A stretch of DNA of 64,000 nt. Origin: Escherichia coli (GTDB lineage: Bacteria > Pseudomonadota > Gammaproteobacteria > Enterobacterales > Enterobacteriaceae). The stretch's first letter is position 1. Every line of letters begins with the position of its first letter. This document shows, one piece after another, positions 2 through 58,204 of this stretch. Made by a program: the position numbers and the translations under genes. Under the pieces are notes generated by a model, which was not told where the DNA came from, ran no database searches, and saw only the letters and a program-made list of their open reading frames with translations. The stretch lies in assembly GCF_044324785.1 (NCBI RefSeq), contig NZ_CP172127.1. One strand, 5' to 3'.

Positions 2-682
2 ACGCGCGAGCAACGCTGGAAATACCTTTCCACTGCCAAACTAAAAGCCGCGCCGGGCAGCCAGGCCGCGTACTCCAACCTCGCATTCGATCTGCTGGCA
101 GATGCACTGGCGAATGCGTCCGGCAAGCCTTATACCCAGTTGTTTGAAGAGCAGATTACCCGTCCATTGGGGATGAAAGACACCACCTACACCCCCTCGC
201 CGGATCAGTGCCGCCGTTTAATGGTTGCTGAGCGCGGTGCCAGTCCGTGCAATAACACGCTGGCGGCAATTGGCAGCGGCGGAGTCTATTCCACGCCTGG
301 CGATATGATGCGCTGGATGCAGCAGTATTTGTCATCTGATTTTTATCAGCGCAGTAACCAGGCAGATCGCATGCAGACGTTGATTTATCAGCGAGCGCAG
401 TTTACAAAAGTGATTGGCATGGATGTCCCCGGCAAAGCGGATGCGCTTGGTTTAGGCTGGGTATATATGGCCCCGAAAGAGGGTCGTCCAGGGATTATTC
501 AGAAGACAGGTGGTGGTGGCGGTTTCATTACCTATATGGCGATGATCCCGCAGAAGAACATTGGCGCATTTGTGGTGGTCACTCGTTCGCCATTGACGCG
601 CTTTAAAAATATGAGCGATGGCATCAATGACCTGGTGACCGAACTGAGCGGGAATAAACCGTTGGTCATCCCCGCGTCCTGA
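2..682 (+). CDS. ampH: Penicillin-binding protein AmpH, C-terminal part (5' end lies outside the window)
   Basis: Open frame runs from the window edge to TGA at 680-682; position relative to yaiV/yaiT matches K-12 synteny. Identity rests mainly on synteny. Confidence 0.7.
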   Translation, partial: TREQRWKYLSTAKLKAAPGSQAAYSNLAFDLLADALANASGKPYTQLFEEQITRPLGMKDTTYTPSPDQCRRLMVAERGASPCNNTLAAIGSGGVYSTPGDMMRWMQQYLSSDFYQRSNQADRMQTLIYQRAQFTKVIGMDVPGKADALGLGWVYMAPKEGRPGIIQKTGGGGGFITYMAMIPQKNIGAFVVVTRSPLTRFKNMSDGINDLVTELSGNKPLVIPAS

Positions 683-1365
<683 letters not shown>

Positions 1366-1379
1366 AACCTATTTCTTCA

Positions 1380-4301
<2,922 letters not shown>

Positions 4302-27494: not shown

Positions 27495-30607
<3,113 letters not shown>

Positions 30608-30613
30608 TAATAA

Positions 30614-31912
<1,299 letters not shown>

Positions 31913-31977
31913 GCAATCAATGTCGGATGCGGCGCGAGCGCCTTATCCGACCAACATATCAGGACGGAATGATCGCA

Positions 31978-32589
31978 ATGAACATGCCAATGACCGAAAG
32001 AATAAAAGCAGGCAAGCTATTTACCGATATGTGCGAAGGCTTACCGGAAAAAAGACTTCGTGGGAAAACGTTAATGTATGAGTTTAATCACTCGCATCCA
32101 TCAGAAGTTGAAAAAAGAGAAAGCCTGATTAAAGAAATGTTTGCCACGGTAGGGGAAAACGCCTGGGTAGAACCTCCCGTCTATTTCTCTTACGGTTCCA
32201 ACATCCATATAGGCCGCAATTTTTATGCAAATTTTAATTTAACCATTGTCGATGACTACACGGTAACAATCGGTGATAACGTACTGATTGCACCCAACGT
32301 TACTCTTTCCGTTACGGGACACCCGGTACACCATGAATTAAGAAAAAACGGTGAGATGTACTCTTTTCCGATAACGATTGGCAATAACGTCTGGATCGGA
32401 AGTCATGTGGTTATTAATCCAGGCGTCACCATCGGGGATAATTCTGTTATTGGCGCGGGTAGTGTCGTCACAAAAGACATTCCACCAAACGTCGTGGCTG
32501 CTGGCGTTCCTTGTCGGGTTATTCGCGAAATAAACGACCGGGATAAGCACTATTATTACAAAGATTATAAAGTTGAGCCTTCAGTTTAA
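31978..32589 (+). CDS. lacA: Galactoside O-acetyltransferase, 203 aa
   Basis: Start placed at ATG 31978 (MNMPMTERI…); hexapeptide repeats. The ORF-track start 31927 reads through a REP-like lacY-lacA spacer. Confidence 0.9.
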   Translation: MNMPMTERIKAGKLFTDMCEGLPEKRLRGKTLMYEFNHSHPSEVEKRESLIKEMFATVGENAWVEPPVYFSYGSNIHIGRNFYANFNLTIVDDYTVTIGDNVLIAPNVTLSVTGHPVHHELRKNGEMYSFPITIGNNVWIGSHVVINPGVTIGDNSVIGAGSVVTKDIPPNVVAAGVPCRVIREINDRDKHYYYKDYKVEPSV

Positions 32590-32606
32590 ATAAGCACTGA
32601 AATAAA

Positions 32607-32636
32607 TGTCGGATGCGCCACTGGGCACATCCGACA
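32607..32636. terminator. Hairpin between convergent lacA and cynX
   Basis: TGTCGGATGCGCC / GGCACATCCGACA, 13-bp stem with one mismatch and a 4-nt loop; REP-like. Confidence 0.45.
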
Positions 32637-32676
32637 ATAATTCACTCTTCCAATATCTGGCGAAACAAGCGTCGCA

Positions 32677-33831
32677 TCATGCCTCTTTGACCCACAGCGG
32701 CGGAAAACGTGCTGGTGCAAAACGCAGGGTTATGATCATCAGCCCAACGACGCACAGCGCATGAAATGCCCAGTCCATCAGGTAATTGCCGCTGATACTA
32801 CGCAGCACGCCAGAAAACCACGGGGCAAGCCCGGCGATGATAAAACCGATCCCCTGCATAAACGCCACCAGCTTGCCAGCAATAGTCGGTTGCACAGAGT
32901 GATCGAGAGCCAGCAGCAAACAGAGCGGAAATGCGCCACCCAGACCTAACCCACACACCATCGCCCACAATACCGGCAATTGCAGCGGCAGCCAGATAAG
33001 GCCGCAGAAACCCACCAGTTGTAACGCCAGTGCCAGCATTAAAAGTTTCCGCCGATCCTGATGGCGAGCCATAGCAGGCATCAGCAATGCCCCTGCTGCT
33101 TGCCCAAGCGTCATCAATGCCAGCAAGGAACCGCTGTACTGCGCGCTGGCACCAATCTCAATATAGAAAGCGGGTAACCAGGCAATCAGGCTGGCGTAAC
33201 CGCCGTTAATCAGACCGAAGTAAACACCCAGCGTCCACGCGCGGGGAGTAAATACCACGCGAACCGGAGTGGTTGTTGTCTTGTGAGAAGAGGCGACCTC
33301 GCGGGCGTTTTGCCTCCACCAGGCAAAGAGCGCAACAACGGCAGGCAGCGCCCACCAGGCGAGTGTTTGATACCAGGTTTCGCTATGTTGAACTAACCAG
33401 GGCGTAATGGCGGCACCAAGTCCACCGCCGCCCATCAGAGCCGCGGACCACAGCCCCATCACCAGTGGCGTACGGTGCTGAAACCGCCGCTTAATTACCG
33501 AAGGCATCACCGCCTGAATGATGCCAATCCCCACTCCACCAAGCAGTGCGCTGCTAAGCAGCAGCGCACTTTGGGGGTAAAGCTCACGCATCAATGCACC
33601 GACGGCAATCAGTAACAAACTGATGGCGACGCTGCGACGTTCGCTGACATGCTGATGAAGCCAGCTTCCGGCCAGCGCCAGCCCGCCCATGGTAACCACC
33701 GGCAGAGCGGTCAACAGGGCAGCCACGCTAAAGCTCATTCCGCTTGCCTGGCGCAATTGCGGTAGCAGTGGCCCGACGGAGGTGAGCAGTGGTCGCATAT
33801 TAAGACCAATCAGCACCAGAACCAGCAGCAT
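32677..33831 (-). CDS. cynX: Cyanate transporter (MFS), 384 aa
   Basis: Start placed at ATG 33831 (MLLVLVLIGLNMRP…). Confidence 0.85.
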   Translation of the reverse strand: MLLVLVLIGLNMRPLLTSVGPLLPQLRQASGMSFSVAALLTALPVVTMGGLALAGSWLHQHVSERRSVAISLLLIAVGALMRELYPQSALLLSSALLGGVGIGIIQAVMPSVIKRRFQHRTPLVMGLWSAALMGGGGLGAAITPWLVQHSETWYQTLAWWALPAVVALFAWWRQNAREVASSHKTTTTPVRVVFTPRAWTLGVYFGLINGGYASLIAWLPAFYIEIGASAQYSGSLLALMTLGQAAGALLMPAMARHQDRRKLLMLALALQLVGFCGLIWLPLQLPVLWAMVCGLGLGGAFPLCLLLALDHSVQPTIAGKLVAFMQGIGFIIAGLAPWFSGVLRSISGNYLMDWAFHALCVVGLMIITLRFAPARFPPLWVKEA

Positions 33832-33863
33832 CGTGAACGTCTTTTGATGGTTACGCATGGCTG

Positions 33864-34352
<489 letters not shown>

Positions 34353-34363
34353 TTAAAATAAGG

Positions 34364-35023
34364 TTACGCTGCGGTCGGTTGGCGTAGCGGTATGGCACAA
34401 ACGCGAGGATTAGCGGCCAGTGGCACAAACTGGCGGGTTGCGCCGTCAAAAGCTGCGATGCTGCCGCTTTCAATGTCGTAGACCCAGCCGTGCAGGGCGA
34501 TCCGCCCCTCTTCGAGCGCCAGGCGCACCGATGGATGAGTTTGCAAATTAGCCAACTGAGCAATGACGTTTTCACGTACCATCGCCGCAGCTTTTGACGG
34601 TAAATCGGGAAGCGGGCGCGCCTCATTAACGACGCGGGCTGAATCGGCATAACGCAGCCAGTGGGAGACGGCAGGCATATGGTCCATGCACTGACAGCTG
34701 GCAATGGCGGTCATCGCGCCACAGTTGGAATGACCGCAAATCACAATGTCAGATACCCGAAGCGCAGCGACGGCATACTCCACCGAAGCAGAAACGCCAC
34801 CGGGTTCCGGCCCGTAGGAAGGGACGATATTGCCCGCGTTGCGAATAACGAACAGATCGCCAGGCTCACGTTGCGTCACCAGCTCAGGGACCAGACGGCT
34901 GTCGGAGCAGGAGATAAAAAGGGTGCGCGGGCTTTGCTGTGTCGCCAGCTGTTTAAACAAGGCTTCCCGCTTCGGAAATGCCTCGCGCTGGAATTTAAGG
35001 AATCCATCAATAATCTCTTTCAC
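34364..35023 (-). CDS. cynT: Carbonic anhydrase, 219 aa
   Basis: Beta-carbonic anhydrase motifs (CSDSR, HxxCG). Confidence 0.95.
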
Positions 35024-35132
35024 CGTTAACCTCTGTCTGTCTCTGGAATGAGAGGCAGACTACTCGCCGATTGTCATAAGGTAAAAGTCTCATTTATGAT
35101 GAGTTCTATTGGATTTACTTATAGGTTGGCGA

Positions 35133-36032
35133 ATGCTCTCTCGACATATCAATTATTTTCTTGCCGTGGCTGAACATGGCAGCTTCACCCGTGCAGCCAG
35201 TGCGTTGCACGTCTCCCAGCCAGCACTTTCCCAGCAGATTCGCCAGTTAGAGGAGAGTTTAGGCGTGCCGCTGTTTGACCGTAGCGGGCGAACGATTCGT
35301 CTCACTGATGCAGGAGAAGTCTGGCGACAGTACGCCAGCCGGGCTTTACAGGAACTGGGGGCGGGTAAACGGGCGATTCATGATGTTGCCGATCTGACGC
35401 GAGGATCGCTGCGTATCGCCGTCACTCCCACCTTTACAAGCTACTTTATCGGCCCTTTAATGGCGGATTTCTATGCGCGCTACCCCGGCATCACGCTCCA
35501 GCTACAGGAAATGTCGCAGGAGAAAATCGAAGATCTGCTTTGCCGCGACGAGCTGGACGTTGGGATTGCCTTCGCGCCTGTGCATTCGCCGGAGCTGGAG
35601 GCAATTCCTTTACTGACAGAAAGTTTAGCTTTAGTCGTGGCGCAATATCATCCGCTGGCTGCCTGTGAACAGGTGGCGTTGAGTCGCTTGCATGATGAAA
35701 AACTGGTCCTGCTCAGCGCGGAATTTGCCACCAGAGAGCAAATTGACCACTACTGTGAGAAAGCGGGGCTACATCCACAGGTGGTCATTGAGGCGAACTC
35801 AATTAGCGCGGTTCTGGAGCTGATTCGCCGCACTTCCCTTTCCACATTGTTGCCAGCAGCGATTGCCACACAACATGACGGGCTTAAAGCTATATCCCTT
35901 GCCCCACCGTTACTGGAGAGAACGGCGGTTTTGTTGCGGCGGAAAAATAGCTGGCAGACAGCCGCCGCGAAGGCATTTTTACACATGGCGTTGGAGGAAT
36001 GTGCGGATGTTGGCGAGAATGAATCACGGTAG
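35133..36032 (+). CDS. cynR: LysR-family regulator of the cyn operon, 299 aa
   Basis: Start placed at ATG 35133 ([22 protein letters not shown]…); divergent from cynT. Confidence 0.9.
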
Positions 36033-36054
36033 CCACTGACACAGGTCAGTGGCT
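36031..36054. terminator. Perfect 10-bp stem hairpin between convergent cynR and codA
   Basis: AGCCACTGAC-acag-GTCAGTGGCT; overlaps the cynR TAG stop codon. Confidence 0.5.
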
Positions 36055-36071
36055 CTTCAACGCAGAGGAAA

Positions 36072-37355
36072 TTACCGTTTGTAATCGATGGCTTCTGGCT
36101 GCTCCAGATATACGGTGGTTTGTGCTGGTTGGGTGCTGGCAATCACCTTACCGCCACGTACCGAATAGCGCACCGGAACCTGACGGCGCAGCGCATCAAA
36201 CCCATTTTCAGCCGGCAGGATAATCAGGTTGGCGCTGTTTCCGGCGGCAATGCCGTAATCCTGCAAATTCAACGTCCTGGCGCTATGGTGGGTGATTAAA
36301 TTCAGGCCGTCGTTAATCTGCCCGTAGCCCATCAACTGACAAACATGCAGCCCCATATGCAGCACTTGCAGCATATTCGCCGTTCCCAGTGGATACCACG
36401 GATCGAAGACATCATCGTGACCAAAGCAGACGTTAATGCCGGACTCCAGCATCTCTTTAACGCGCGTGATGCCGCGACGTTTTGGATAGGTATCGAAACG
36501 TCCTTGCAGATGAATATTGACCAGCGGGTTGGCGACAAAGTTAATACCGGACATTTTCAGCAAACGGAACAAGCGTGAGGTATACGCCCCGTTATAGGAG
36601 TGCATTGCCGTAGTGTGGCTAGCGGTGACTCGCGCGCCCATGCCTTCACGGTGCGCCAGGGCAGCAACGGTTTCGACAAAGCGCGACTGCTCGTCATCGA
36701 TCTCATCACAGTGAACGTCGATGAGACGGTCGTATTTTTGCGCCAGGGCGAAGGTTTTATGCAGCGACTCCACGCCGTATTCGCGGGTAAATTCAAAATG
36801 CGGAATCGCCCCCACTACGTCTGCCCCTAAGCGTAACGCCTCTTCCAGCAACGCTTCACCGTTGGGATACGACAAAATCCCTTCCTGCGGGAAGGCGACG
36901 ATTTGCAGATCAATCCACGGCGCGACTTCCTGCTTCACTTCCAGCATTGCTTTCAGCGCGGTCAGCGTTGCATCCGAAACATCGACATGGGTACGTACAT
37001 GCTGAATGCCGTTGGCAATCTGCCATTTCAGCGTTTGCCATGCGCGTTGTTTCACATCGTCATGGGTTAATAACGCTTTGCGCTCGGCCCAGCGTTCAAT
37101 GCCTTCGAACAGCGTGCCGGACTGATTCCAGTTCGGTTGTCCGGCGGTTTGCGTGGTGTCCAGGTGAATATGCGGCTCCACAAACGGCGGTAAAACTAAA
37201 CCTTGTTCGGCATCCAGGCTGTTTTCTGTTACGGGCATCACACCAGATTGCGTATCAATGGCGCTGATTTTTCCGTCGTGAAGATGAATCTGCCACAGCC
37301 CCTCTTTGCCGGGTAACCGGGCGTTAATAATTGTTTGTAAAGCGTTATTCGACAC
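36072..37355 (-). CDS. codA: Cytosine deaminase, 427 aa
   Basis: GTG start at 37355 preceded by GGAGG 6 nt upstream ([16 protein letters not shown]…). Confidence 0.9.
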
Positions 37356-38604
37356 TGTTAGCCTCCACATGCGTCATTGCTGCTGTCGTTTTACGATTCA
37401 AAATCGGGTTAAGGATCAGATAGCTCAGCGCGCCACCTAATACCGCGTTGACCGGAACAATTCCCGGTAACCAGTGGCCTGCGGCAATCCCCAGCGCGAC
37501 CGCCAGAATTGCCACCCAATTGACACTCATCATACGCGTGGTCGCAAAGTGCTCATAGCGGCGACGGTTCATCAGATAGTCAGCGATGATCACGCCCCCT
37601 ACCGGAGGAATAGCTGCCGAAAGGAAGGTCAGCCAGCCGACAAAATTGTTATACAGCCATAGTGCGCAGACCGTACCGATAATACCGTTGATTACCGAAA
37701 GGGTTTTGCTCGACATCCCGGTAATGTTGGCGAAACCTAAGCCCGACGCATAGAGCGCGTTATCGTTGGTGGTCCAGATATTCAGCCCCAGCACCACAAT
37801 CGCAGGCAGCAGCAGACCCTGAGCAATCATCACATCAGAGATATCCGCCATCCCCAGTGCCGCCGCGCCCGCTGCACCGAAAATAAACATCAACGAGTTG
37901 CCGAGGAAAAAGGCCACCATCGCCACCAGCACCGCCAGTTTGGCATTGCGACCAAACCGGACAAAGTCAGCGGTGAGCGTGCCCGCGCTGATAAATGACC
38001 CCACAACCAGCGCCAGTGCGACATTGAAATCTAACGGTTGTGCGGGAACGACCGCTTTTAATGCGTCCAGGCCGCCCATGCCATTAACAGCCAGCCACAC
38101 GGAATAACCGCCAAGGCAGGCGATAGCCGGAACCGCAATCACCGAAAGAACCGTCAGCGCCGAAATGCCAAAGAAGACGGTGACGGTCATCAGTAAACCG
38201 GAGACGGCAATCAGCAAATTAATATCCAGCCCGGTTGCCTTGCCCACCGGAATAGCAAACATCGCCACGCCAACGCCAAACCAGCCGACCTGAGTGCCGC
38301 CCAGCAGCAGTGAAGGCAGCCATGAGCCTTTAACACCAAACGAGAAGCGAGCAAGAAGATGAGTGGTCAGGCCGGTTTTTGCGCCAATGTAACCAAGAAA
38401 TGAAGTGTAAATACCGAGGAGAAGATTACCGATGAGGACTGCGAGGAAGAAATCATGATAGCTAAGACCGGTTCCGAGAGTGCCGCCGGTCCACATACTG
38501 GCGGAAAAGAAGGTTAATCCCAGCATGACGAACGTCAATGCCAATACCCCTTTCCGCGCCGACTGCGGGACTGGCCCCTGGCTAAAGTTGTTATCTTGCG
38601 ACAC
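37345..38604 (-). CDS. codB: Cytosine permease (NCS1 family), 419 aa
   Basis: Polytopic membrane protein; 11-nt overlap with the codA start. Confidence 0.9.
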
Positions 38605-38767
38605 GAAATTCCCCCTTTTTGCTGTTTGAAACCCAAAAAATCCGCCGCATTCTATTCATCTGAAGATAAAAAGCAATCGTTTTCGTGGGGAAATATATTT
38701 TTTATATGAATGAGTGCAAAAAGGTGGGGGAAAAATTATCGGTGTAAAAACAGTGGGTAGCCATAAT

Positions 38768-38836
38768 AAGACGCGGTAAGCGTCGCATCAGGCATCGGCG
38801 CATGGTGTCGGATGCGCCAGGCGACGCATCCGACAA
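38768..38836. repeat. REP-like element(s) between prpE and codB
   Basis: GCGTCGCATCAGGCATCGGCGCATGGTGTCGGATGCGCCAGGCGACGCATCCGACA. Confidence 0.7.
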
Positions 38837-38840
38837 TAAC

Positions 38841-40727
38841 CTACTCTTCCATCGCCTGGCGGATCTGATCCAACGACGCAGGATCATCAATGGTCGTCAG
38901 ATCCCCAGGATCGCGTCCTTCACAAATCGCCTGGATCGTGCGGCGCAGCATTTTTCCGGATCGCGTTTTCGGCAATTGCGAGACAAACCAGACGTGCGCC
39001 GGGCGACCAAAGTTGCCAATCTGGCTGTCCACCAGCGCCATAATCGCCTTCTCTTGCGAATGCGCCACATCACGATCTTCCAGACTGTCGCTCTCTTTCG
39101 GAATGACAAACGCCACCGCCACCTGCCCTTTCAGCGCATCTTTCACCCCAACCACCGCCACTTCGGCAACGCCCGGATGACTGGAGATACTCTCTTCAAT
39201 CTCGCGCGTCCCCAGCCGATGCCCGGCAACGTTAATCACATCGTCAGTGCGCCCGAGAATAAAGTGATAACCGTCAGCATCGCGGATACCCCAGTCAAAA
39301 GTGGCGTACACCGGACGGGAAAACAGCGACCAGTACGTCTTCACAAAGCGGTCGTCGTCGCCCCAAATGGTCTGAATACACCCCGGCGGCAGCGGCCCTT
39401 CCACCACCAGCATCCCTTTCTCGTTGACCCCGCACGGTTCGCCGGTAACTTCATTGAGCAACTGCACGTTGTAGCCATACATCGGCACGCCGGGGCTTCC
39501 CAGACGCGTCGGCCTGTCGTCCAGACCGCGAGCAATCGCCATAATCGGCCAGCCGGATTCGGTCTGCCAGTAGTTGTCGATGACCGGCACATCCAGCGTA
39601 TTGCTCACCCAACTGGCGGTCGGCTCGTCCAGCGGTTCTCCAGCCAGATAGAGCACTTCCAGCGACGAGAGATCGTGTTTGCGAATTTCAGCGGTAGGGA
39701 ATTTTTTCAGCACGCGAATGGCGGTCGGCGCTGAGAACATCCGGCTAACCTGATATTTCTCGACGATTTTCCACCACACACCGCAGTCCGGCCAGGTCGG
39801 CAATCCTTCGTAAACGATAGTCGCCATCCCCGCCAGCAGCGGCGCGTAGACGATATACGAATGCCCCACCACCCAGCCGATATCCGAAGCACAAAAGAAC
39901 ACACCGCCCGCTTTGCCGCCAAAAATGGTTTCCATCGAGGTCGCCAGCGCCACCGCATATCCGCCAACGTCACGCTGCACGCCTTTAGGTTTGCCGGTCG
40001 TGCCGGAGGTGTAGAGAATGCAGGAGGTTTCGTTGGATTCCAGCCACGCCACCGGTACCCGCGCGCCGATGTGTTGATGGCGCAACGACGCGAAATCGAC
40101 ATCCCGCCCGCTGACGCGTGCCATTTTCGCCAGCCCGCGATCCACCAGCAAAACATGGCGTGGCTGGTGCTGCGCCTGACTTATCGCATCGTCGAGCAAT
40201 TTTTTATAGGGAATGATTTTGCCACCGCGCGCTCCGGCATCAGCCGAGACAATCAGCACCGGTTTAGCATCATCAATTCGCGCCGCCACGCTGTGCGAGG
40301 CAAATCCACCAAACACCACCGAGTGAATAGCGCCAATGCGCGCGCAGGCCAGCAGAGTAATATGCGCTTCGGCAATCATCGGCATATACACCAGCACCCG
40401 ATCGCCACGCTGCACGCCCAATGAACGCAACATTGAGGCCACCGCGTTCACTTCGTCATGCAGCTGACGAAAGGTAAAGGTGCGCTCTTCTTCTGTTTCC
40501 GAAGAGACGGCAATCAGCGCCAGCGCCTCTGGCTGTTTCTCCAGCCAGCGGTCGATAGCGTTGTGACACAAGTTGGTTCGGCCTTCACAAAACCAACGGG
40601 CAAACGGCGGGTTGCTGTGGTCGAGCGTTTGCGTAAAGGGCGTCTGCCAGTCAATACGCCGGGCCTGCTCGGCCCAGAACTGCTCCGGTTCGTTAATCGA
40701 ACGCTGATAAAATTCGCTAAAAGACAT
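38841..40727 (-). CDS. prpE: Propionyl-CoA synthetase, 628 aa
   Basis: AMP-binding motif YTSGTTGKPKG. Confidence 0.9.
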   Translation of the reverse strand: MSFSEFYQRSINEPEQFWAEQARRIDWQTPFTQTLDHSNPPFARWFCEGRTNLCHNAIDRWLEKQPEALALIAVSSETEEERTFTFRQLHDEVNAVASMLRSLGVQRGDRVLVYMPMIAEAHITLLACARIGAIHSVVFGGFASHSVAARIDDAKPVLIVSADAGARGGKIIPYKKLLDDAISQAQHQPRHVLLVDRGLAKMARVSGRDVDFASLRHQHIGARVPVAWLESNETSCILYTSGTTGKPKGVQRDVGGYAVALATSMETIFGGKAGGVFFCASDIGWVVGHSYIVYAPLLAGMATIVYEGLPTWPDCGVWWKIVEKYQVSRMFSAPTAIRVLKKFPTAEIRKHDLSSLEVLYLAGEPLDEPTASWVSNTLDVPVIDNYWQTESGWPIMAIARGLDDRPTRLGSPGVPMYGYNVQLLNEVTGEPCGVNEKGMLVVEGPLPPGCIQTIWGDDDRFVKTYWSLFSRPVYATFDWGIRDADGYHFILGRTDDVINVAGHRLGTREIEESISSHPGVAEVAVVGVKDALKGQVAVAFVIPKESDSLEDRDVAHSQEKAIMALVDSQIGNFGRPAHVWFVSQLPKTRSGKMLRRTIQAICEGRDPGDLTTIDDPASLDQIRQAMEE

Positions 40728-40766
40728 AATGCTCTCCTGTTGAACTTACGCCTTACCGCCGTTTAC

Positions 40767-42218
40767 TTAAATGACGTACAGGTCGAGATACTCATTGACC
40801 GGCATCTGTTCCAGGCGAGTTCTGTCGAGAGAAACCTCCAGAATGCGCTGTTGCTGGCGAGTCGGGAACTGGCGCGCGAGATTGATTTTGAATTTATCGA
40901 CCAGTTTCGGAATACCATCCTGACGGCGGCGAGCATGACCAATGGGGTACTCCACCACCACTTCTTCAAATCGTGTGCCGTCGGTGAACTCAAGGGTAAT
41001 GGCATTGGCGATGGCGCGTTTTTCCGGGTCGTGGTAGTCAGCAGTAAATGCCGGATCTTCAAAGCAATTGATCTTCTCGCGCAGGGCGTCAATGCGTTTA
41101 TCTTGCGCAACGTTGTCCTCGTAATCTGCCGCCGTTAAGCGCCCGAATAGCAGCGGGATCGCCACCATGTACTGAATGCAGTGGTCGCGGTCAGCCGGGT
41201 TATTGAGCGGCCCTTTTTTGTCGATGATGCGAATACAGGCTTCGTGGGTGCGAATGGTCACTTTTTCGATATCCGCCGCCGTTTTGCCTGCTGCCTGCAT
41301 CTGTTCATAGAGCGTCATCGCCGCTTCAACTGCCGTCTGGGAGTGGAACTCCGCCGGGAAGGAGATTTTGAACAGCACATTTTCCATGACGTAAGAACCG
41401 TACGGGCGCTGGAAGCGGAACGACTCACCTTTAAAGGAGACGTCGTAGAAGCCCCACACAGGCGCAGTCAGGGCTGACGGGTAACCCATTTCGCCCGTTT
41501 TCGCCATCAGTGCCAGACGTACCGCGCGGGAAGTGGCATCGCCCGCCGCCCAGGATTTACGCGTGCCGGTGTTCGGCGCATGGCGATAGGTGCGCAGCGA
41601 CTGACCGTCCACCCACGCCAGCGAAACGGCGTTGAGAATTTCCTCGCGGGTCAGGCCGAGCATTTCGGCGACCACGGCGGTGGAAGCCACTTTCACTAAC
41701 AGAACATGGTCGAGGCCGACGCGGTTAAAGGAGTTTTCCAGCGCGATGCAGCCCTGAATTTCATGGGCTTTAATCATTGCGGTCAGCACCTGCTTCATGG
41801 TCAACGGCGCTTTGCCGCTGGCGACCGCGTTGCGCGAAAGCCAGTCCGCCGTTGCCAGAATGCCGCCGAGGTTGTCGGAAGGATGGCCCCACTCCGCCGC
41901 CAGCCAGGTATCGTTGAAATCGAGCCAACGGATCATCGCGCCGATGTTAAATGCCGCCTGGACGGGGTCGAGCTGGAACTGAGTTCCGGGGACGCGCACG
42001 CCGTTAGGTACGACGGTGCCAGGAACAATTGGCCCCAGCAGTTTTTTACAGGCCGGGTATTCGAGAGCTTCAAGACCGCAGCCGAGCGTGTCGAGCAGGC
42101 AGTAATGTGCGGTCTCGTAGGCCACTCTGGAGCTGATTTCGTAGTTCATGACGTAATCGACGATATCAACGATTTCACGATCAAATTCCGGGCGGATGTT
42201 GTTGATTTGAGCTGACAT
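40767..42218 (-). CDS. prpD: 2-methylcitrate dehydratase, 483 aa
   Basis: Recognised by sequence and operon position. Confidence 0.9.
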
Positions 42219-42251
42219 TGGGTACGTTTCCTTATTGTTATTCGTAGAGGT

Positions 42252-43421
42252 TTACTGGCGCTTATCCAGCGCGACAAACTGGCGGTCTTCCGGTCCAACA
42301 TAATTGGCGGAAGGACGGATAATTTTGTTGTCCTGACGTTGTTCGATAATGTGCGCAGCCCAGCCAGTGACACGGGCGATAACAAACAGTGGTGTGAACA
42401 TCTCGGTGGGAACACCCATCATGTTGTAGGAAACAGCGGAGAACCAGTCGAGATTGGGGAACATCTTTTTGCTCTCCCACATCACCGTTTCCAGGCGATC
42501 GGCGATGTTGTACATCTTCAGCGAGCCGCCTTCCTGCGAGAGCTGCTTCGCCACGCGTTTGATCACCTGATGACGCGGGTCGGCGATGGTATAAACCGGA
42601 TGACCAAAACCAATGACCACTTCTTTGTTTTCCACCCGCTTGCGGATATCGGCTTCGGCTTCGTCCGGCGTTTCGTAGCGTTGCTGGATCTCCAGCGACA
42701 CTTCATTCGCTCCGCCGTGTTTCGGCCCGCGCAGTGCGCCAATTGCGCCAATAATGGCTGAGTACATATCAGAGCCGGTGCCCGCAATCACCCGGCTGGT
42801 AAAGGTGGAGGCGTTAAACTCGTGTTCGGCGTACAGCACCAGCGAAATATGCATCGCCTTTTCCCAGCTTTGCGACGGCTTTTCGCCATGCAGCAGATGC
42901 AGGAAGTGACCGCCGATGGAGTCGTCATCGGTTTCCGGCTGAATGCGTTCGCCGTTGTGGCTGTAGTGATACCAGTAGAGAAGAATCGAGCTAAGTGACG
43001 CCAGCAGTTTGTCGGCAATATCCCGCGCACCAGAAACGGTGTGCCCCTCTTTTTCTGGCAGCGTGCAGCCGAGCGCGGAAACGCCTGTGCGCATGATATC
43101 CATCGGGTGCGACGCCGCGGGTAAGGCTTCCAGCACGGTACGCACGTTAGCTGGTAAACCGCGCAGGGCTTTCAGTTTTGTTTTGTAAGCGGCGAGTTCG
43201 TCACGGGTCGGCAGTTTGCCGTGGATCAGCAGATGCGCCACTTCTTCAAATTCGCAATGTTCCGCCAGATCAAGAATATCGTAACCACGGTAATGCAAGT
43301 CATTGCCACTTTTACCCACGGTGCAGAGCGCCGTATTGCCCGCCGGAACGCCAGAAAGTGCTACCGATTTTTTCGGTTTAATGACATGGGTACTGTTTTG
43401 CAGGATCGTTGTGTCGCTCAT
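42252..43421 (-). CDS. prpC: 2-methylcitrate synthase, 389 aa
   Basis: Citrate-synthase family; operon position. Confidence 0.9.
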
Positions 43422-43465
43422 ATTGTCCTCGTCATTTGTAGGGTCGAGATATTTTTCGTTGTGTT

Positions 43466-44356
43466 TTATTTCACCTGGCTACGGGCAAACAGGTCGTCGA
43501 GCTTCTCTTCGTACTGGTAGTAGTTGATGCTTTCGTACAGCTCGTTGCGGGTCTGCATGGTGTCGATGACGCTTTTCTGCGTCCCTTCCTGACGCAGGAC
43601 GTTGTAGACATGCTCAGCGGCGCGGTTCATGGCGCGGAACGCTGAAAGTGGGTACAGCGCCATTGCGACATGGGCGCTGCGTAATTCGTCGGTGGTAAAC
43701 AGCGGTGTTGCGCCAAATTCGGTGATGTTGGCGAGGATCGGCACCTGCACCGCATCGGCAAACTGGCGGTACATGGCGAGTTCGGTAATCGCCTCCGGGA
43801 ACAACATCTCGGCACCCGCTTCAACATAGGCCTGCGCACGCTCAATCGCCGCATCCAGCCCCTCTACCGCCAGCGCATCGGTGCGCGCCATGATCACAAA
43901 ATCAGGATCGGTTTTCGCATCCACCGCCGCGCGGATCCGATCCACCATTTCTTCTTTCGAGACGATCGCTTTATTCGGGCGATGACCGCAACGTTTCGCA
44001 CCAACCTGATCTTCAATATGCAATCCTGCCGCACCGGCTTTAATCATCGATTTCACGGTGCGCGCCACGTTAAAAGCAGAAGAACCAAAACCGATATCCG
44101 CATCCACCAGCAGCGGCAGCGAACAAACGTCGGTGATACGGCGAATATCTGTCAGCACGTCATCAAGAGTAGAAATACCGAGATCGGGCAGCCCCAGCGA
44201 CCCTGCCGCCACGCCACCGCCGGAGAGATAAATTGCCTGATATCCGGCACGCTGCGCCAACAGCGCATGGTTGGCGTTGATGGTGCCGACAATCTGTAAT
44301 GGATTTTCTTTAGTCAGTGCAGCGCGAAACGCTTTACCTGGAGAGTGTAGAGACAT
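43466..44356 (-). CDS. prpB: 2-methylisocitrate lyase, 296 aa
   Basis: Recognised by sequence and operon position. Confidence 0.9.
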
Positions 44357-44402
44357 AGCCCATCCTTTGTTATCAACTTGTTATTTGCGTTGATAAACAC
44401 AA

Positions 44403-44418
44403 AGCAAGGGGTGTGCCA
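44403..44418 (-). promoter_or_regulatory. Sigma54 (-24/-12) promoter for prpBCDE
   Basis: Minus strand reads TGGCAC-ACCCC-TTGC, an exact match to TGGCAC-N5-TTGC; sits between prpR and prpB. Confidence 0.7.
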
Positions 44419-44594
44419 CAATTGCCTTAATAAAATTAAATGTTTAATTTCAATTTGTTAGCAATATAGTCATGAAGTAATCCGCAAATATGCGTTTCAG
44501 TTAACGTTTCAGGCAATGTTTCACCGCGTTTCATTGCAACAATTATGAAACAAGACTAAACCCAATATTCGGTTTCTTAACTTTGCGGTGCGCT

Positions 44595-46181
44595 ATGGCA
44601 CATCCACCACGGCTGAATGACGACAAACCGGTTATCTGGACGGTATCTGTAACGCGGCTGTTCGAGCTGTTTCGCGATATCAGCCTCGAGTTTGATCATC
44701 TGGCGAACATTACCCCTATCCAGCTTGGCTTTGAAAAAGCGGTGACCTACATCCGCAAGAAACTGGCAAGCGAACGCTGTGACGCCATCATCGCTGCTGG
44801 CTCTAACGGCGCATATCTTAAAAGCCGCCTGTCAGTGCCAGTTATTTTGATTAAACCGAGCGGCTACGATGTGTTACAGGCACTGGCAAAAGCCGGAAAA
44901 CTCACCTCTTCTATCGGCGTTGTGACTTATCAGGAAACTATTCCGTCGCTGGTGGCGTTTCAAAAAACCTTTAATTTGCGCCTCGACCAACGTAGCTACA
45001 TTACCGAAGAAGACGCGCGCGGGCAGATTAACGAGCTGAAAGCTAACGGCACCGAAGCGGTGGTCGGCGCGGGGCTGATTACCGATTTGGCAGAAGAAGC
45101 CGGAATGACCGGAATTTTTATCTATTCCGCCGCCACCGTGCGCCAGGCATTCAGCGATGCGCTGGATATGACGCGCATGTCGTTACGCCATAACACTCAC
45201 AATGCCACCCGTAACGCCCTGCGTACTCGTTACGTGCTGGGCGATATGCTCGGTCAATCATCACAGATGGAACAGGTACGGCAGACTATTATGCTGTATG
45301 CCCGCTCCAGTGCGGCGGTGTTGATTGAAGGGGAAACGGGGACGGGCAAAGAGCTGGCGGCCCAGGCGATTCATCGGGAATATTTTGCCCGCCACGATGC
45401 GCGACAGGGCAAAAAGTCGCATCCGTTTGTTGCCGTCAACTGCGGGGCGATTGCCGAATCGCTGCTGGAAGCAGAGCTGTTTGGCTATGAGGAAGGGGCG
45501 TTTACCGGCTCGCGACGCGGAGGACGCGCCGGACTGTTCGAAATTGCCCACGGCGGCACGCTGTTTCTTGACGAGATAGGCGAAATGCCTCTGCCATTGC
45601 AGACTCGGCTGTTACGAGTGCTGGAAGAAAAAGAGGTCACTCGCGTCGGCGGGCATCAGCCTGTTCCGGTGGATGTGCGGGTCATTAGCGCCACCCACTG
45701 CAATCTGGAAGAAGATATGCGGCAAGGGAAGTTTCGCCGTGACCTGTTTTATCGGCTGAGTATTTTGCGTCTGCAATTGCCACCACTGCGCGAGCGGGTG
45801 GCGGATATTCTTCCGCTGGCGGAAAGCTTTTTGAAAGTGTCTCTGGCGGCGCTCTCCGCCCCGTTTTCTGCCGCATTACGCCAGGGATTACAGGCAAGCG
45901 AAACCGTGCTGGTGCACTACGACTGGCCGGGCAATATTCGTGAACTGCGCAATATGATGGAGCGACTGGCGCTGTTTTTAAGTGTGGAACCGACGCCGGA
46001 TTTAACGCCGCAATTTTTGCAGCTGCTACTGCCGGAGCTGGCGCGCGAGTCGGCGAAAATTCCCGCTCCACGCTTACTGACACCACAACAGGCACTGGAG
46101 AAATTTAAAGGCGATAAAACAGCAGCGGCGAATTATTTAGGCATAAGCCGGACGACGTTCTGGCGGCGGCTGAAAAACTGA
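44595..46181 (+). CDS. prpR: Sigma54-dependent activator of the prp operon, 528 aa
   Basis: AAA+ sigma54-interaction motifs ([14 protein letters not shown]); start placed at ATG 44595. Confidence 0.9.
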
Positions 46182-46184
46182 ACT

Positions 46185-46216
46185 GCCGAATGCAGCGCGA
46201 ACGCTTTATCCGGCAT
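46185..46216. repeat. REP element downstream of prpR
   Basis: GCCGAATGCAGCGCGAACGCTTTATCCGGCAT. Confidence 0.7.
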
Positions 46217-46281
46217 AAATTTCAATAGATGATGATCACCGATAAACTTACGCATCGGGGATGTTTACATAGGTTTCAGAA

Positions 46282-46557
46282 TTACTTCTTCTTATAAATA
46301 TTTGCCGTACCGTGAATCTTATTGTCAGTTTGACCAGAGGTCAGCACCAACACATCAGCCCCTTTTTCATCGGCTTTTTTGATTAAATCTTCTTTTGCAT
46401 CTGCAGTCGACATTTCATTACTGGTTGAAATATCACCTATTTTTTCATATTGCGATTCAACTTTTTCAAATTCCGCTTTGGTCATCAATTCAGCGGCATA
46501 GACATTGGTAACGGCAAACGCTAACGCACCGACTAACATTTTAGAGATTATTTTCAT
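46282..46557 (-). CDS. yahO: DUF1471-family periplasmic protein YahO, 91 aa
   Basis: Signal peptide [21 protein letters not shown]. Confidence 0.85.
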
Positions 46558-46703
46558 ATTACGGCTCCAGAGTTGTTATCACACTATCACCCACCGACAT
46601 TATTGGGTTGATTAATAATTAGTTCAGTCAGGGCATAAACGCCAGTAACCGGAAATAAGACACTTTGTGATCTCTCTCGCACCCCATTATTTTTGGTAGA
46701 AAT

Positions 46704-47375
46704 ATGATGCAGTTAGTTCACTTATTTATGGATGAAATCACTATGGATCCTTTGCATGCCGTTTACCTGACCGTAGGACTGTTCGTGATTACTTTTTTTA
46801 ATCCGGGAGCCAATCTCTTTGTGGTAGTACAAACCAGCCTGGCTTCCGGTCGACGCGCAGGAGTGCTGACCGGACTGGGCGTGGCGCTGGGCGATGCATT
46901 TTATTCCGGGTTGGGTTTGTTTGGTCTTGCAACGCTAATTACGCAGTGTGAGGAGATTTTTTCGCTTATCAGAATCGTCGGCGGCGCTTATCTCTTATGG
47001 TTTGCGTGGTGCAGCATGCGCCGCCAGTCAACACCGCAAATGAGCACACTACAACAACCGATTAACGCCCCCTGGTATGTCTTTTTTCGCCGCGGATTAA
47101 TTACCGATCTCTCTAACCCGCAAACCGTTTTATTTTTTATCAGTATTTTCTCAGTAACATTAAATGCCGAAACACCAACATGGGCACGTTTAATGGCCTG
47201 GGCGGGGATTGTGCTCGCATCAGTTATCTGGCGCGTTTTTCTTAGTCAGGCGTTTTCTTTGCCCGCAGTGCGTCGTGCTTATGGGCGTATGCAACGCGTT
47301 GCCAGTCGGGTTATTGGTGCAATTATTGGTGTATTCGCGCTACGCCTGATTTACGAAGGGGTGACGCAGCGGTGA
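46704..47375 (+). CDS. yahN: LysE/RhtB-family amino-acid exporter, 223 aa
   Basis: Six-TM hydrophobic profile typical of the family. Confidence 0.85.
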   Translation: MMQLVHLFMDEITMDPLHAVYLTVGLFVITFFNPGANLFVVVQTSLASGRRAGVLTGLGVALGDAFYSGLGLFGLATLITQCEEIFSLIRIVGGAYLLWFAWCSMRRQSTPQMSTLQQPINAPWYVFFRRGLITDLSNPQTVLFFISIFSVTLNAETPTWARLMAWAGIVLASVIWRVFLSQAFSLPAVRRAYGRMQRVASRVIGAIIGVFALRLIYEGVTQR

Positions 47376-47391
47376 GCAGATAATTTACTCT

Positions 47392-47637
47392 CTACGTAAT
47401 CAACCTGATTTGCCGAATCCCGACCATCGGCGATGATAGCCCCCGTAATGCGTGGTCCTTATTTCCGATAAGTTTACTTGAGTCTTTAGCTTCCCATTTC
47501 AGCCCACTCTCCCCTGTGTGGGCTTTTTTCATTGCTCTGACCCGTCCTGAATAGCCAAACAATGGCAATGTTCCACTTTGCAGGGATGATAATAAGGGGA
47601 TCTGATTCAGAAGAGTTTTGAAAAGTTGGACCGCCAT
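47392..47637 (-). CDS. yahM: Small uncharacterised protein, about 81 aa (YahM-like)
   Basis: Short ORF at the K-12 yahM position; start (47637 versus 47667) and coding status not established. Confidence 0.4.
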   Translation of the reverse strand: MAVQLFKTLLNQIPLLSSLQSGTLPLFGYSGRVRAMKKAHTGESGLKWEAKDSSKLIGNKDHALRGLSSPMVGIRQIRLIT

Positions 47638-48049
47638 CGAGGCCTCGAACCCCGTACCATACAACAATCCTGGTTGTCGTCTGCTCTTCCTGATGAGCTA
47701 ATGGCGGTTTTTGATATGAGCCTTACAGCATATTTTCTGTCAGGCTTGAGTGCGATGCGTAAGATACAGAAAAGACCCCACACAAACATGATGGAATTAT
47801 GATTTTTTTCATATGAATGTCAACCCACACATTCACAAAACATCTGCATGAGATCATTTTTTATACACCGTATAGCTGCGAAACCACTGCTGATGCTTTT
47901 TTAAGCGAAGTGTCGCCGATCACAACAAAATATCGGCGAAAAAAGAGATGGAATGCCAGTTGGCATACAGATATACAGATGAAATGATTACCTGCATTGC
48001 GATTCACTCTCTGGTGGAATAACAACTTGCAGGTGGAACCCTTTCTGAA

Positions 48050-58028: not shown

Positions 58029-58204
58029 CTGCCTGATGCGCTACGCTTATCAGGCCTAGAATTCTCGTGCCATTCGTAGGCCGGATAAGGCGTTCACGCC
58101 GCATCCGGCAATGGTGACAAATGCCTGATGCGCTACGCTTATCAGGCCTACAGATTCTCGCGCCACTCGTAGGCCGGATAAGGCGTTCACGCCGCATCCG
58201 GCAA
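58029..58204. repeat. BIME: tandem pair of about 95-bp units, each with two REP sequences
   Basis: Two near-identical units containing GCCTGATGCGCTACGCTTATCAGGCCTA and GTAGGCCGGATAAGGCGTTCACGCCGCATCCGGCA. Confidence 0.85.

Follow-up and report, generated by a model that had tools for sequence, protein, structure and literature searches.

The codB–codA junction of Escherichia coli: a GTG start for CodA placed by a Shine–Dalgarno sequence inside codB

The codBA operon of Escherichia coli K-12 (codB, b0336; codA, b0337, UniProt P25524) was described by Danielsen et al. (1992, Mol Microbiol 6:1335), as cited in PMC9508425. Its gene order, prpE, codB, codA and cynR, is common to K-12 and to the window, by which we mean the whole 64-kb stretch of E. 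coli DNA analysed here. CodB of the window is 100% identical to its K-12 counterpart at the amino-acid level and CodA 98.4%, with a few substitutions such as E17K, Q26H, A36T and I43V; K-12 differs from the window in that a small remnant of a pseudogene separates codA from cynR. The closest described class of arrangement comprises the coupled same-strand overlapping gene pairs, which, like codBA, are co-directional and place the start codon and the Shine–Dalgarno sequence of the downstream gene inside the upstream one (PMC12548453, PMC10666635, PMC6728339). Typical pairs of this kind overlap by 4 or 1 nt (ATGA, TAATG), whereas codB and codA overlap by 11 nt, which lies in a range for which reduced coupling efficiency is reported (PMC12548453).

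Among related organisms, codBA of Salmonella enterica subsp. arizonae, Citrobacter, Proteus, Budvicia, Edwardsiella and Hafnia has the same 11-nt overlap, with the codB TAA lying across codA codons 3 and 4, and these junctions carry a GGAG/GAGG core 6–7 nt upstream of the start, as in the window. Most of these junctions begin codA with ATG rather than GTG, without the ATG that E. coli has at position −15. The overlaps of Providencia are 8, 20 or 32 nt, and Pasteurellaceae have a short, non-overlapping spacer between codB and codA. The GTG start of codA and the codBA junction are already known, and GTG is the start annotated in databases. We put the probability at about 0.96 that the junction in the window is the standard E. 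coli codBA junction, at which CodA starts at a GGAGG-positioned GTG (37355–37353) and an in-frame ATG further upstream is unused.

Gene identity and anatomy of the junction

Both genes were recognized as full-length members of their families. The CodA reading frame scored 896.6 bits against NCBIfam NF006685 (PRK09230; cut-off 483), and the match spanned residues 8–432 of the 432-aa open reading frame and profile positions 2–426, while the CodB frame scored 695.5 bits against NF008241 (PRK11017, NCS1 family; cut-off 326) over residues 1–414. The PDB CodA chains 1k6w and 3o7u align from Ser2 (E ~1e-291), and PDB chains of native CodA open with SNNALQ. The gene pair is flanked by prpE and, at its other end, by cynR/cynT, which is the E. 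coli arrangement. A 701-nt region around the junction was matched in 5225 of 5426 complete E. coli genomes, and all 101 of 101 nt across the junction are identical to K-12 and Nissle 1917, which places it among E. coli codBA junctions. In the K-12 and Nissle loci, RefSeq annotates codB at 597–1856 and codA at 1846–3129, that is, with the GTG start and the 11-nt overlap.

The codB–codA junction lies on the minus strand of the window, and its elements are as follows (window coordinates, read from the sequence except where a further basis is given):

38604..37345, minus strand: codB, cytosine permease, 419 aa, with a GTG start at 38602–38604 and a TAA stop at 37347–37345
37355..36072, minus strand: codA, cytosine/isoguanine deaminase, 427 aa from GTG, coordinates including the stop
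37376–37374, minus strand: TGA in the codA frame, upstream of the ATG
37370–37368, minus strand: in-frame upstream ATG, a longest-ORF artefact, five codons 5' of the GTG
37366–37362, minus strand: Shine–Dalgarno core GGAGG, inside the codB codons GTG-GAG-GCT
37361–37356, minus strand: 6-nt spacer CTAACA between the Shine–Dalgarno core and the codA start
37355–37353, minus strand: GTG initiation codon of codA (conservation, annotation and published K-12 data)
37355..37345, minus strand: codB/codA overlap GTGTCGAATAA, 11 nt (RefSeq annotates the same overlap)
37347–37345, minus strand: codB stop TAA, across codA codons 3 and 4 (the same in all 15 junctions that overlap by 11 nt)

At its 3' end the codB frame reads AAT CGT AAA ACG ACA GCA GCA ATG ACG CAT GTG GAG GCT AAC AGT GTC GAA TAA. 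The codA frame runs from TGA through ATG TGG AGG CTA ACA to GTG TCG AAT AAC GCT, and the codB stop sits 8 nt downstream of the codA GTG. The first-pass annotation had described an 11-nt overlap and a GTG at 37355 lying 6 nt after a GGAGG within the codB 3' end, and its coordinates proved right to the base. Because the in-frame TGA (37376–37374) precedes the ATG, the longest-ORF call for codA in the program-made list begins at ATG 37370 and gives 432 aa. The motif GGAGG-N5-8-GTG occurs twice in the 64-kb window, against 5.4 occurrences expected from shuffles, so that there is no enrichment; since this count is within chance, motif statistics were dropped as evidence, and the case rests on where the elements lie and in which frame, on their conservation and on experiment.

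Both genes of the operon have GTG starts, and the codB GTG (38602–38604) is preceded by a purine run, GGGGG/GGGGGAA. In K-12, the codB and codA starts each give INRI-seq and Ribo-RET peaks (PMC9825163).

The start of CodA

Ribosomes begin CodA at GTG 37355–37353, placed there by the GGAGG 6 nt upstream within the last codons of codB, and removal of the initiator Met leaves Ser as the mature CodA N-terminus. ATG 37370, which lies upstream of this Shine–Dalgarno sequence and has none of its own, goes unused, so that the five residues gained in the longest-ORF call (MWRLT) are spurious. With the 16S 3' end, the 20 nt preceding each candidate form a best duplex of −9.3 kcal/mol for the GTG versus +0.3 kcal/mol for the ATG. 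GGAGG and its 6-nt spacer supply a purine core within the 5–9 nt upstream that characterize Shine–Dalgarno-led non-ATG initiation. Being located downstream of ATG 37370, this GGAGG cannot serve that ATG. No argument against the GTG start was found in the analysis.

Conservation was assessed in a scan with one genome per species, which returned 80 loci, and loci were anchored on the CodA alignment; the 80 loci entered in the counts are the window and 79 fetched loci, three further E. coli copies being left out. The column aligned with the GTG of the window holds ATG in 49 of the 80 loci and GTG in 16, and thus a start codon in 65, and a GGAG/GAGG/AGGA core lies upstream in 56 of those 65, with a Shine–Dalgarno-to-start spacing of 6–7 nt in the orthologues. 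In 22 of the 80 loci, a stop codon in the codA frame falls within the 15 nt before the start and forbids a start at −15 or beyond there. codB is found upstream in 26 loci, and the overlap is exactly 11 nt in 15 of these, the taxa concerned being those named above for this overlap and Zophobihabitans. The remaining codB-linked Enterobacterales have overlaps of 8, 14, 20 or 32 nt with a constant frame relation, so that every codB-linked locus of the order overlaps, within a range of 8–32 nt. Across the 15 junctions with the 11-nt overlap, three elements stand out as peaks of information content: the Shine–Dalgarno core (−11 to −6), in which the A at −9 and the G at −8 never vary, the start codon of codA and the TAA of codB. 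The columns from −15 to −13 are the least conserved of the junction (0.17–0.25 bit).

These patterns bear directly on the competing reading in which CodA is made from ATG 37370 as a 432-aa protein (MWRLTV...) and the GTG is an internal valine codon. ATG 37370 is the first start codon past the in-frame TGA and is of the commonest start type, but it has no Shine–Dalgarno sequence (+0.3 kcal/mol, with GGAGG lying on its downstream side), it falls in the least conserved columns, and a start at that position is forbidden by the in-frame stop in 22 loci. Among the 80 loci, an ATG at −15 is confined to Escherichia, a Yersinia group and the closely related cassette of Hafnia paralvei, where its retention speaks for the ATG. 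The five stand-alone codA homologues of the Yersinia group (around locus positions 1986–2003) do start five codons 5' of the aligned column; their case differs, however, in that TTA or GTA, neither of them a start codon, stands where E. coli has the GTG, and the −15 ATG is served by a GGAG of its own. Judged from these letters, the −15 ATG is the real start in that group, and such a start, five codons upstream, implies that a five-residue N-terminal extension is tolerated in the CodA family. The 432-aa form of CodA is also present in public protein sets, where it is a minority (K-12-type on 36 contigs, window-type on 5), each of the two 427-aa forms, K-12-type and window-type, being found on at least 1000 contigs.

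In their work of 1992, Danielsen and colleagues reportedly determined the GTG start of codA by N-terminal sequencing. Further published experiments weigh on the choice of start, and these were made in K-12, whose junction is identical to that of the window over the 101 nt compared. In the TRAINSPOTTER N-terminomics data, Table S1 (rows 70–71) lists for codA (b0337) a 13-residue peptide beginning at position 1 and a 12-residue peptide beginning at position 2, both assigned to the database start at NC_000913:356171-356173, where GTG is labelled ‘near-cognate’ (PMC13245402). As listed in those rows, the peptide has Met, not Val, at the GTG-encoded position, which is a signature of initiation, since internal reading of the codon would give Val (PMC13245402). 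With INRI-seq, for which the synthetic transcript has its 5' end 30 nt before the GTG and therefore includes the ATG, retapamulin-arrested ribosomes were found at 356171 in all five of five replicates (peaks of 230, 160, 242, 226 and 165; PMC9825163 Table S2). The in vivo Ribo-RET data of Meydan et al. give a codA peak of 17.9, scored as identified (PMC9825163 Table S2). The complete INRI-seq Table S3 of non-annotated starts holds no alternative start for codA, although sites at −15 are reported there for other genes, e.g. fixA and yaeI (PMC9825163). Taken with the Met at the GTG position, this makes a CodA produced from ATG 37370 in place of the GTG barely credible.

A softer version, in which the GTG yields the main product and the ATG a minor proteoform with five additional residues, is somewhat less far-fetched and still very improbable. 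The N-terminomics data are blind to an ATG-initiated form, as its Arg-C type N-terminal peptide, deduced from the sequence, would be MWR only, and the block from ATG to GTG is kept between E. coli and Hafnia, the codB tail upstream of it having diverged. Such a proteoform would nevertheless have to be initiated at an ATG that lacks a Shine–Dalgarno sequence, that is not conserved beyond these two closely related cassettes and that gives no peak in INRI-seq or Ribo-RET at the thresholds of those methods (PMC9825163). The GTG start thus agrees with the RefSeq annotation of the identical sequence, with the K-12 N-terminal peptides, with the initiation footprints and with conservation across species. 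The first-pass annotation had taken this GTG as the CodA start and the ATG-based call at 37370 as over-extended, and had named initiation at the ATG as the finding that would speak against it. Both positions held: the ATG has no Shine–Dalgarno sequence, is unconserved and shows no initiation signal in the published K-12 INRI-seq and Ribo-RET data.

Coupling of codA to codB translation

Translational coupling at the codB–codA junction is plausible, because short overlaps are conserved. The first-pass annotation had gone no further than to call the arrangement consistent with such coupling, and this reading holds. The two genes are co-directional and overlap by 11 nt, as expected of a coupled pair. 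Ribosomes that terminate on codB, 8 nt past the GTG, may contribute to codA initiation, and they could do so by re-initiation or through a higher local ribosome concentration, on top of de novo initiation at a strong ribosome-binding site. In favour of such a contribution, the Shine–Dalgarno sequence and the codA start both lie inside codB, short overlaps are conserved across Enterobacterales, and no promoter-like or terminator-like site was found at the junction. The only sigma-70-like match in a consensus scan of positions 35900–39000 lies upstream of codB, with none inside the codB 3' end:

38692..38720, minus strand: candidate operon promoter, sigma-70-like consensus at 9 of 12 positions (pattern match only)

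An internal promoter or terminator at the junction was rejected, as the search turned up neither there.

The quantitative data come from the same K-12 study. Also in favour of a contribution, the codB:codA peak ratio is 28:1 in the in vivo Ribo-RET data, where retapamulin leaves no ribosome traversing codB, versus ~1.15–1.2:1 on isolated fragments, where it becomes ~2:1 after transcript normalization (44.7 and 75.9 CPM) (PMC9825163). Polarity and mRNA decay confound the in vivo ratio when codB goes untranslated. Coupling is not obligatory: taken out of its codB context, the codA initiation region still initiates efficiently in vitro (PMC9825163). Coupling is reported to lose efficiency once overlaps go beyond 4 nt and to be absent at 25 nt (reviewed in PMC12548453; see also PMC10666635). 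A literature search found no published test of coupling in codBA. On balance, we consider the odds of a partial contribution of coupling to codA expression to be close to even, if slightly on the lower side.

A stricter alternative is obligatory coupling by RNA unfolding, in which structure would occlude the codA ribosome-binding site until codB is translated. The position of the Shine–Dalgarno sequence and start within codB, with the codB stop 8 nt downstream, would suit such a device, and so would a small predicted hairpin that pairs the GTG with an upstream GCGUCA-type sequence and the in vivo Ribo-RET peak of codA, 28 times below that of codB (PMC9825163). In the predicted hairpin, however, the Shine–Dalgarno sequence sits in the loop, and the fold is no stabler than shuffled sequences (MFE −22.5 versus a mean of −23.4 kcal/mol, z = 0.27; equal or greater stability in 122 of 200 shuffles). 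RNAalifold returned an empty consensus structure for 13 aligned junctions. Moreover, the isolated codA fragment forms initiation complexes in five of five INRI-seq replicates, at about the codB level (PMC9825163). An occluding RNA structure as the basis of coupling was thus rejected, the single fold being unremarkable and the alignment fold empty, with no sign of the structure that an RNA-unfolding mechanism calls for, and obligatory coupling of this kind appears improbable.

In a more speculative extension of partial coupling, the 11-nt overlap, held as it is across distant Enterobacterales, would be a selected re-initiation device, in which ribosomes step back 8 nt to a Shine–Dalgarno-tethered start. 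We regard this as unlikely. If it were true, the ratio of permease to deaminase would be fixed by the overlap, de novo initiation would be held down by the weak GTG and leave coupling as the main route in vivo, and the contrast between 28:1 and roughly 1–2:1 in the codB:codA ratio would be its signature. As a natural example, the conserved 11-nt overlap would be of modest use for studying how coupling works at overlaps longer than 4 nt.

Variation, transfer and annotation

Variation at the junction within E. coli leaves its main elements in place, as the ATG, the Shine–Dalgarno sequence and the GTG were all retained in the three variant genomes inspected. A 66-nt junction query returned 2626 of 5226 records at 95–99% identity. 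A common E. coli polymorphism at window position 37361, seen in strain WCHEC020032, turns GGAGGC into GGAGGT, which changes Ala to Val in the CodB tail and lengthens the complementarity to the anti-Shine–Dalgarno sequence. Strain Z1323HEC0067 carries a 6-bp deletion (CGAATA) after GTGT, homologous to window positions 37346–37351, by which two CodA codons are lost together with the stop of codB; in this strain RefSeq annotates a longer codB, an overlap of 26 nt and codA still from the GTG. The region 28000–48000 of the window is at most 98.4% identical to its best match among the 5426 complete E. coli genomes, with the synteny of prp, codBA, cyn and lac unchanged. Among complete E. coli genomes, codA of strain N3 is the only one that reaches 99.5% identity, and the exact CodA protein of the window occurs on at least 1000 public contigs. 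The window may thus come from a lineage, or from a Shigella-type genome, that the set of complete genomes lacks.

In Hafnia paralvei ATCC 29927 (locus positions 572–3284), CodB and CodA are 94% and 91% identical to those of the window, versus ~83% for Salmonella/Citrobacter. There the codBA genes are without prpE and cynR as neighbours, and downstream of them lie genes for a LacI-type regulator and a TsgA-like MFS transporter. This suggests that the codBA cassette was transferred horizontally between the Escherichia and Hafnia lineages.

For annotation, the value of the analysis is that the 427-aa, GTG-initiated CodA is right and the 432-aa longest-ORF call wrong. Since codA finds wide use in counter-selection and as a suicide gene, its true start and embedded ribosome-binding site matter in cloning, and gene-therapy constructs swap the codA GTG for ATG. 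The 90%-identity protein cluster that includes CodA of the window (36075–37355, minus strand) also holds 208-aa uracil phosphoribosyltransferases, and this mixture is probably an artefact of the clustering, with synthetic codA::upp fusions linking the two families.

Several minor observations concern other parts of the window. Table S3 of the INRI-seq study lists reproducible non-annotated K-12 initiation sites for homologues of three window genes, namely lacA (−9, GTG, in frame, 5/5 replicates), cynT (+9, ATT, 5/5) and cynR (+132, GTG, 4/5) (PMC9825163). Rfam gives a single match above its gathering score in the window, to naRNA4 (RF02564) with 78 bits, at 58079–58148 on the plus strand.
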